Shown here in pieces: positions 17,050 to 17,163 of a stretch of 36,812 nt of DNA. Location of the stretch: NCBI RefSeq assembly GCF_003334315.1, contig NZ_QOWR01000048.1. One strand, written 5' to 3'. Origin of the DNA: Escherichia coli (lineage in GTDB: Bacteria > Pseudomonadota > Gammaproteobacteria > Enterobacterales > Enterobacteriaceae). The translations under genes and the position numbers were made by a program. The notes beneath the pieces were generated by a model. It worked only from the letters and a program-made list of their open reading frames with translations. It was not told where the DNA came from and did no database searches. Position 1 is the first letter of the stretch; each line of letters begins with the position of its first letter.

Positions 17050-17163
17050 GAAATAAGAAAACCCTTAAGTCTGTGCGACACAGGCTTAAGGGTTTCTACC
17101 CCATCCGGCGCTTATCTCCGGCACTCTCAGTGGCTTAGCTCTTGAAGGGGCGATAAGAATAAT
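17050..17163 (-). ncRNA. rydB: Probable rydB small RNA locus (approximate bounds), including a long 17-bp hairpin with a U-rich tail on the minus strand
   Basis: K-12 has the ~68-nt sRNA RydB between sufA and ydiH. Window 17062-17098 forms a near-perfect 17-bp stem followed on the minus strand by UUUUCUUAUUUCU. Exact ends are not recoverable from memory. Confidence 0.4.

Follow-up and report, generated by a model that had tools for sequence, protein, structure and literature searches.

A long terminator hairpin between the small-RNA gene rydB and sufA in Escherichia coli, and its probable removal from the abundant RydB RNA

The terminators of small-RNA genes usually have stems of 5–14 bp, and in systems such as SgrS and RprA a short non-coding gene is directly succeeded, in the same orientation, by a G/C-containing stem-loop and a U-tract in which the transcript ends. 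Another kind of 3' end is found in the rnpB/M1 RNase P RNA and in the leuX tRNA, in which a terminator-bearing 3' extension is clipped after transcription by enzymes (RNase E, RNase P or PNPase) that work outside the stem and leave a short single-stranded tail. In addition, hairpins processed by RNase III are known from T7 R1.1, lambda sib and the 3' end of DicF. RNase III cuts have also been reported in the terminator/attenuator hairpins hisL, pheM and pflB (Gordon et al. 2017).

Here we report on a hairpin found in a 36,812-nucleotide stretch of E. coli DNA (hereafter the window, numbered from its first letter), directly downstream of the core of the small-RNA gene rydB. RydB has been known since 2001. 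One paper describes it as being without known targets or regulating transcription factors, and the sole role cited for it elsewhere is an effect on rpoS. The hairpin is already known as an element: the literature contains rydB, its two transcript lengths and a predicted terminator, which RepRanger gives as Rho-independent. We found in it no description of a mechanism of terminator removal or of a locus-specific recurrence of long stems.

Like SgrS and RprA, rydB is followed on its own strand by a G/C-containing stem-loop and a U-tract in which a transcript ends. Unlike the SgrS-type terminators, the rydB stem measures 17–18 bp, and unlike SgrS, which ends in its U-tract, the abundant RydB is without the terminator and has its main 3' end inside the 5' arm. 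RydB resembles rnpB/M1 and leuX in being a compact, very abundant and structured RNA that appears to be made with a terminator extension and then clipped; unlike in those RNAs, its 3' end falls inside the paired stem, a position that speaks for a double-strand-specific cut. With the RNase III hairpins mentioned above, the rydB stem shares its length, its nearly perfect pairing, the G-C pairs between the predicted cuts and a distance of about one helical turn to the loop, but it differs from them in having just 3–4 bp below the site, and only the end in the 5' arm is mapped, the mate cut being predicted. As regards its own family (Rfam RF00118), the 61 nt adjoining the hairpin are a full-length, high-scoring member, whereas the hairpin falls outside the model except for 5 nt and, among the matches listed, the long hairpin is specific to copies at the ydiH–sufA locus.

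The hairpin and the rydB transcript

Window positions equal NC_000913.3 coordinates minus 1747617, and the 341 bases that were aligned (16990–17330) show no difference from E. coli K-12 MG1655. The minus strand carries, in this order, ydiJ, menI, ydiH (stop codon at 17317), rydB and the suf operon, which begins with sufA (start at 16769). Between ydiH and sufA, two inverted-repeat arms of 17 nt at 17059–17075 (AAACCCTTAAGTCTGTG) and 17079–17095 (CACAGGCTTAAGGGTTT), 94% complementary and 3 nt apart, represent the best near-perfect inverted repeat of the 36.8-kb window. Read on the minus strand, they give a hairpin with its 5' arm at 17095–17079, its loop at 17078–17076 and its 3' arm at 17075–17059, a structure documented by its pairing, folding energy, z-score, covariation and single copy. 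The stem carries a single A.C mismatch, which on the plus strand becomes a G.U pair, and can be lengthened to 18 bp by a G.U pair at 17096/17058; three CCC/GGG pairs lie above three AAA/UUU pairs at its base. On the same strand, the U-rich tail UUUUCUUAUUUCU spans 17061–17049, its first three U residues being still within the stem. Folded alone on the minus strand, the hairpin reaches −22.0 kcal/mol (z = −5.6), and none of 200 shuffled sequences was as good. A generic promoter/terminator scan passed over the hairpin; the A.C mismatch apparently breaks the stem that such a scan counts, and we judge the miss to be a false negative.

An earlier note on this DNA, based on the sequence alone, had described a 17-bp stem with one mismatch, a 3-nt loop and a minus-strand U-tail, about 220 nt downstream of ydiH. 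Both the inverted-repeat search and the sequence bear out this description, and the distance agrees with the position of the ydiH stop codon; the hairpin is present, while the coordinates then given (17062–17098) were off by 3 nt, the true span being 17059–17095.

The rydB gene adjoins the hairpin on its upstream side. Specifically, RF00118 matches 17151–17091 (minus strand) over the full model length, with 81.6 bits against a gathering score of 50, and the last five nucleotides of the match (AAACC) are the first five of the hairpin 5' arm, the hairpin lying otherwise outside the model. In RefSeq, K-12 rydB (b4430) is annotated at 1764713..1764780, which corresponds to 17096–17163 of the window, a 68-nt interval abutting the hairpin.

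To place published RNA ends, U00096.2 coordinates were converted to U00096.3 by adding 1976 and then to the window by subtracting 1747617. The +1976 offset is our assumption, taken from older rydB coordinates, and was checked only against lpp, for which a start site at 1755407 + 1976 and a Term-seq 3' end at 1757702 give a 320-nt mRNA. In the Term-seq sequence strings, position 51 corresponds to the stated coordinate, a register that was checked on aspU and aspV with their tRNA coordinates.

The rydB transcription start site maps to 17152–17153 on the minus strand (Class I entry RVS_(I)-1762794 in Table S2 of Romero et al. 2014, start-site range 1762793–1762794 on U00096.2). Upstream of it lies a putative extended −10 promoter, read from sequence and conservation, which consists of a TG at 17167–17166, one base and the hexamer GATTAT at 17164–17159, ending 6–7 nt before the mapped start. 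A TGAGAnnAT motif is kept upstream of the rydB core in most related loci among the matches listed, whereas the sequence farther upstream is not; no good −35 element was seen in the promoter region. The 5' end of the gene as annotated in RefSeq/EcoCyc lies 10 nt upstream of the mapped start site, within the −10 element, and the annotation stops 5 nt before the Term-seq 3' end described below.

Two lengths of the transcript have been published. Romero et al. (2014) list rydB at 1762690..1762794 (104 nt) and a second entry, 'rydB*', at 1762730..1762794 (64 nt), both on U00096.2; converted to window positions, these entries place the 3' end of the long form within the U-tract, at 17049, and that of the short form at about 17089. 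In the Term-seq data of Adams et al. (2021, Supplementary file 1), the sole curated 3' end in this region is 1764708(-), that is 17091, with 2.17 and 4.14 million reads in two conditions, compared with about 0.18 million for lpp; the aspV tRNA counts 3.5 million reads in the same sheet, so that the rydB end is in the range of a tRNA, and SgrS ends there in its own U-tract. The curated list has no entry starting with 17646, hence none in the rydB U-tract, and the long form rests for this reason on RNA-seq boundaries. The 3'-end data of TERMITe contain no rydB entry. The Salmonella LT2 RydB, annotated at 105 nt (Sittka et al. 2008), agrees with a primary transcript of 104–105 nt extending from 17153 to 17049. 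Its 3' end closes the U-rich tract UUUUCUUAUUUCU (17049–17061), as indicated by the sequence, by the 104-nt entry and by T-rich tails in homologues. The mature short RydB, of about 61–64 nt (17091–17153), is delimited by RF00118, the Term-seq end at 17091 and the 64-nt entry. It contains two internal hairpins besides its closing helix, CCCC/GGGG, and finishes in an 8-nt 3' tail UAGAAACC, and the predicted fold of 17151–17046 retains both the closing helix and the terminator hairpin.

The earlier note had also linked the hairpin to RydB. The RefSeq annotation confirms that RydB is annotated here in K-12, and the Rfam model falls directly upstream of the hairpin, with the 5-nt overlap in the 5' arm. 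The minus-strand transcript end looked for at about 17050 is found at 17049, as the end of the 104-nt transcript (Romero et al. 2014). The proposal that the hairpin is the RydB 3' structure holds for this primary transcript, but not for the abundant RNA, which ends at 17091, inside the 5' arm.

Comparative evidence across relatives

When one genome per species was scanned for a 20-nt word from the rydB core, at least 120 loci were returned, of which at least 117 rydB-like copies were kept for the family analyses. Locus L072, without flanking core, was left out, as were two matches in Bacteroidales MAGs (L002 and L037); in these contigs the word occurs once each, in surroundings that resemble one another and that we take as unrelated to rydB. 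Among the matches listed, several genomes carry two or more rydB-like copies (Pantoea, Rouxiella, Serratia sp. M24T3, Sodalis). Diverged paralogues were also observed in Pantoea, Erwinia, Rouxiella, Serratia, Sodalis, Kosakonia, Hafnia and others, often with at least two per genome and at loci unrelated to suf. As judged by sequence, then, the rydB core is not a single-copy small RNA of Escherichia and Salmonella. Its closing helix covaries, appearing as GCCCC/GGGGC, GCTCC/GGAGC, GTTCC/GGAAC or GTCCCT/AGGGAC.

The same hairpin follows the core directly in 28 distinct sequences among the matches listed, from Escherichia, Citrobacter, Salmonella, Silvania and Leclercia. Across these 28 homologues, standard pairs occupy 93.5% of the pair cells, 7 of the 17 pairs show changes on both sides, and the covariation score is 0.232 against 0.140 in shuffled alignments (0 of 500 reaching the observed value), while register-slid controls are paired to at most 63%. 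The lower 10 bp (AACCCUUAAG/CUUAAGGGUU) are nearly invariant across the five genera, the apical part turning over with compensation, and the position mismatched in E. coli is unpaired in 13 of the 28 sequences. In all 28, the stem is followed by a T-rich tail.

A second, unrelated long hairpin of 17–20 bp (CGAACGRUC...) occupies the same place just 3' of the core in Citrobacter koseri, three other Citrobacter and Pseudenterobacter (L076, L014, L083, L053, L082), with a mostly poor U-tail. Among the matches listed, both long-hairpin families occur only in the arrangement menI/ydiH–rydB–sufA, on the same strand, as verified by tblastn. The rydB copies found elsewhere (Klebsiella, Raoultella, Pantoea, Kosakonia and others) are followed, 14–85 nt downstream, by unrelated ordinary terminators. 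In conclusion, the element is a real, conserved and functional RNA hairpin, ordinary in kind, that is a terminator, with a modestly interesting maturation step.

Termination and removal of the terminator

Three features of an intrinsic terminator are present at this locus, namely a stable stem-loop with G-C pairs near its base, an adjoining U-tract and a transcript end within the U-tract. On the strength of the stem, the U-tract and the published 104-nt end at 17049, the hairpin is read here as terminating rydB transcription. The RNA end at 17091 lies inside a fully paired stem and is therefore not produced by termination. With a probability that we put at roughly three in four, the hairpin and U-tract form the Rho-independent terminator of rydB, which is later removed, the abundant RydB ending at 17091. 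Transcription would start at about 17153 from the extended −10 promoter, run through the 61-nt conserved core and stop in the U-tract at about 17049; the terminator would then be removed from the 104–105-nt primary transcript, leaving an RNA that ends five nucleotides into the 5' arm.

Two simple final steps were considered and rejected: an RNase P-type cut at the base of the stem and an RNase E cut in the 6-nt linker. The observed end lies 3' of both the stem base and the linker, and either cut was discarded because the resulting RNA would be shorter than the one observed.

Within the terminator-plus-removal reading, the most economical route would be a staggered RNase III cut, a possibility that we rate at somewhat below even odds. 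The mapped processing position, ACC|CUUAAG at 17090–17091 (minus strand), is given by the Term-seq coordinate, five nucleotides into the 5' arm. Geometry only, that is a staggered cut with 2-nt 3' overhangs, places the predicted mate in the 3' arm at 17061–17062. Cuts between 17091 and 17090 and between 17062 and 17061 would free the upper 12 stem positions with the loop, and the U-tail. The pairs enclosed by these cuts, 17092–17062 and 17091–17063, are both C-G. According to Altuvia et al. (2018), who cite an ACC|U motif, G-C-rich pairs between the staggered cuts are favoured in vivo, and the ACC|C site with its two C-G pairs matches this rule. Moreover, the distance from the cut-equivalent position to the loop is 11–12 stem positions in 24 of the 28 homologues among the matches listed, despite the turnover of the apical sequence. 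The paired stem extends for 12 positions above the 17091 site and for just 3–4 bp below it, which is short for RNase III. In a search for rnc- or rne-dependent evidence, rydB was found neither in the supplements of Gordon et al. (2017) nor in the text of Stead 2011. Copies of rydB that lack the long hairpin presumably yield a similar RNA, and RNase III would therefore be no general requirement of the family. Taken as a model, RNase III-type processing, which the earlier note had named as the alternative, fits the geometry of the hairpin and the published in vivo cleavage preferences, and the processing route of the RydB terminator is a modest lead.

A second way of removing the terminator, which we consider rather doubtful, would dispense with RNase III. 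An endonuclease, be it RNase E or some other enzyme, would cut the loop, the breathing stem or the downstream sequence, and trimming of the RNA by 3'-exonucleases (PNPase with helpers, RNase II, RNase T/PH) would go on until they stall about 8 nt from the RydB core. The mature tail does run 8 nt past the closing helix, a length equal to the stalling footprint of RNase II and PNPase. In agreement with this route, AACC follows the closing helix directly in 17 of 84 copies at other loci without the long hairpin, compared with 3 of 84 in a control window (among the matches listed), and this enrichment suggests that the core, rather than the hairpin, determines the tail. The site also has a U at position +2 (CC|CUU), the main RNase E determinant according to Chao et al. 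(2017); however, the supplementary lists of that study on RNase E cleavage in Salmonella do not include rydB, a weak counterargument in view of files that may be incomplete. The end also lies in a fully paired stem of −22 kcal/mol, normally a block to exonucleases and no substrate for RNase E, and this route leaves unexplained both the recurrence of two unrelated long stems at the suf locus and, among the matches listed, the constant 11–12 stem positions above the site.

If, instead, the functional RydB kept the hairpin as its 3' structure, in the manner of typical Hfq-dependent small RNAs, then the short form would amount to no more than a decay intermediate. The existence of the 104-nt form, the 105-nt annotation in Salmonella and the near-invariance of the lower 10 bp in five genera speak in its favour. 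We nevertheless regard it as improbable: the dominant 3' end is at 17091, with reads in the range of the aspV tRNA, the conserved family model spans only the core, and the terminators that come after the core in other lineages are unrelated (among the matches listed). In addition, RydB is listed among Hfq-independent RNAs and is weakly enriched with Hfq (4 against 10 reads).

A role at the DNA level, as a protein-binding palindrome in the region upstream of suf or as a dispersed repeat of the REP/ERIC type, is very improbable. A perfect CTTAAG core is present in both arms, and the suf OxyR site, which we take to lie around 16995–17035, would be just downstream of the hairpin, although a search of the whole window with a strict OxyR consensus, allowing up to three mismatches, found no site. 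The hairpin occurs in one copy per genome in 5380 of 5426 complete E. coli genomes, and a dispersed palindromic repeat (REP/BIME, ERIC) was rejected on the grounds of this single place. Among the matches listed, the spacing of the half-sites varies by 10 nt between homologues while complementarity is kept by compensatory changes, which argues for an RNA stem and not for a dimer-binding site.

Equally remote is the idea that the hairpin works as a bidirectional terminator or belongs to a plus-strand transcript: the plus-strand hairpin is more stable (−25.9 kcal/mol, z = −8.1, with G.U in place of A.C) and is preceded by an A-rich run, but its tail UUUCUACCCC is not U-rich, all three curated Term-seq entries at 17647xx are the minus-strand rydB end, with no plus-strand 3' end listed, and the neighbouring suf operon, ydiH, menI and ydiJ all lie on the minus strand. 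A plus-strand open reading frame of 35 codons (17038–17145), overlapping the hairpin and rydB, was set aside as unsupported.

The suf locus and the nature of RydB

Several other structures were observed in the surroundings of rydB. About 30 nt past the ydiH stop codon, an imperfect minus-strand hairpin, CGACCTGGA...TCCAGGTTCG, with a weak U-rich tail spans 17262–17292 and may serve, ahead of the rydB promoter, as a weak terminator of ydiH. The menI–ydiH gap contains, at 17515–17574, a long imperfect inverted repeat with 28-nt arms, 79% complementary and 4 nt apart; the likely start codon of ydiH follows shortly after it, at 17505. The sole Rfam match of the repeat is noise (mir-1278, E = 0.08). 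An E-value scan of 16780–17620 with Rfam likewise returned, besides rydB, only noise from microRNA and snoRNA models (E ≥ 0.08). Just past the U-tract, the minus-strand sequence CTATCTCTTAAATAGTCATTTTCAATACA (16995–17035) is kept in Escherichia and in several Citrobacter loci, whereas the surrounding spacer is not. Farther away, the window carries a full-length RprA small RNA at 22755–22862 on the plus strand (RF00034, 115 bits), with a canonical short terminator.

From the rydB hairpin it is about 350 nt to the suf promoter, which lies downstream in the same orientation. A strong rydB terminator probably shields suf from read-through, because rydB is very highly expressed and lies at this short distance from a tightly regulated promoter that points in the same direction. 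The unusual length of the hairpin appears to be a property of the suf-adjacent locus, and would fit a need to stop a strong transcription unit before the regulated suf promoter. Since the hairpin stands between a very strong promoter and the suf promoter controlled by Fur, IscR and OxyR, mutations in it could alter suf expression.

Bringing the processing and the genomic context together, we put forward, as a tentative proposal against which the odds still stand, that RydB maturation depends on RNase III cutting the gene's own long terminator at ACC|C. The product would be a 61-nt, Hfq-independent RNA of tRNA-like abundance with an AAACC-3'OH tail, and the long stem of 17–20 bp, working as insulating terminator and processing cassette, would have evolved twice independently in those Enterobacteria in which rydB lies directly upstream of suf.

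These data also bear on how RydB is studied. The annotated interval 17096–17163 matches neither the mapped start (17153) nor either of the mapped 3' ends (17091 or 17049), and deletions, overexpression constructs and target predictions based on those 68 nt therefore use the wrong molecule. The abundant RydB is a terminator-less RNA of 61–64 nt, with neither a 3' hairpin nor a U-tail, which fits its weak link with Hfq. As such, RydB stands nearer to the processed stable RNAs than to the classical base-pairing small RNAs.
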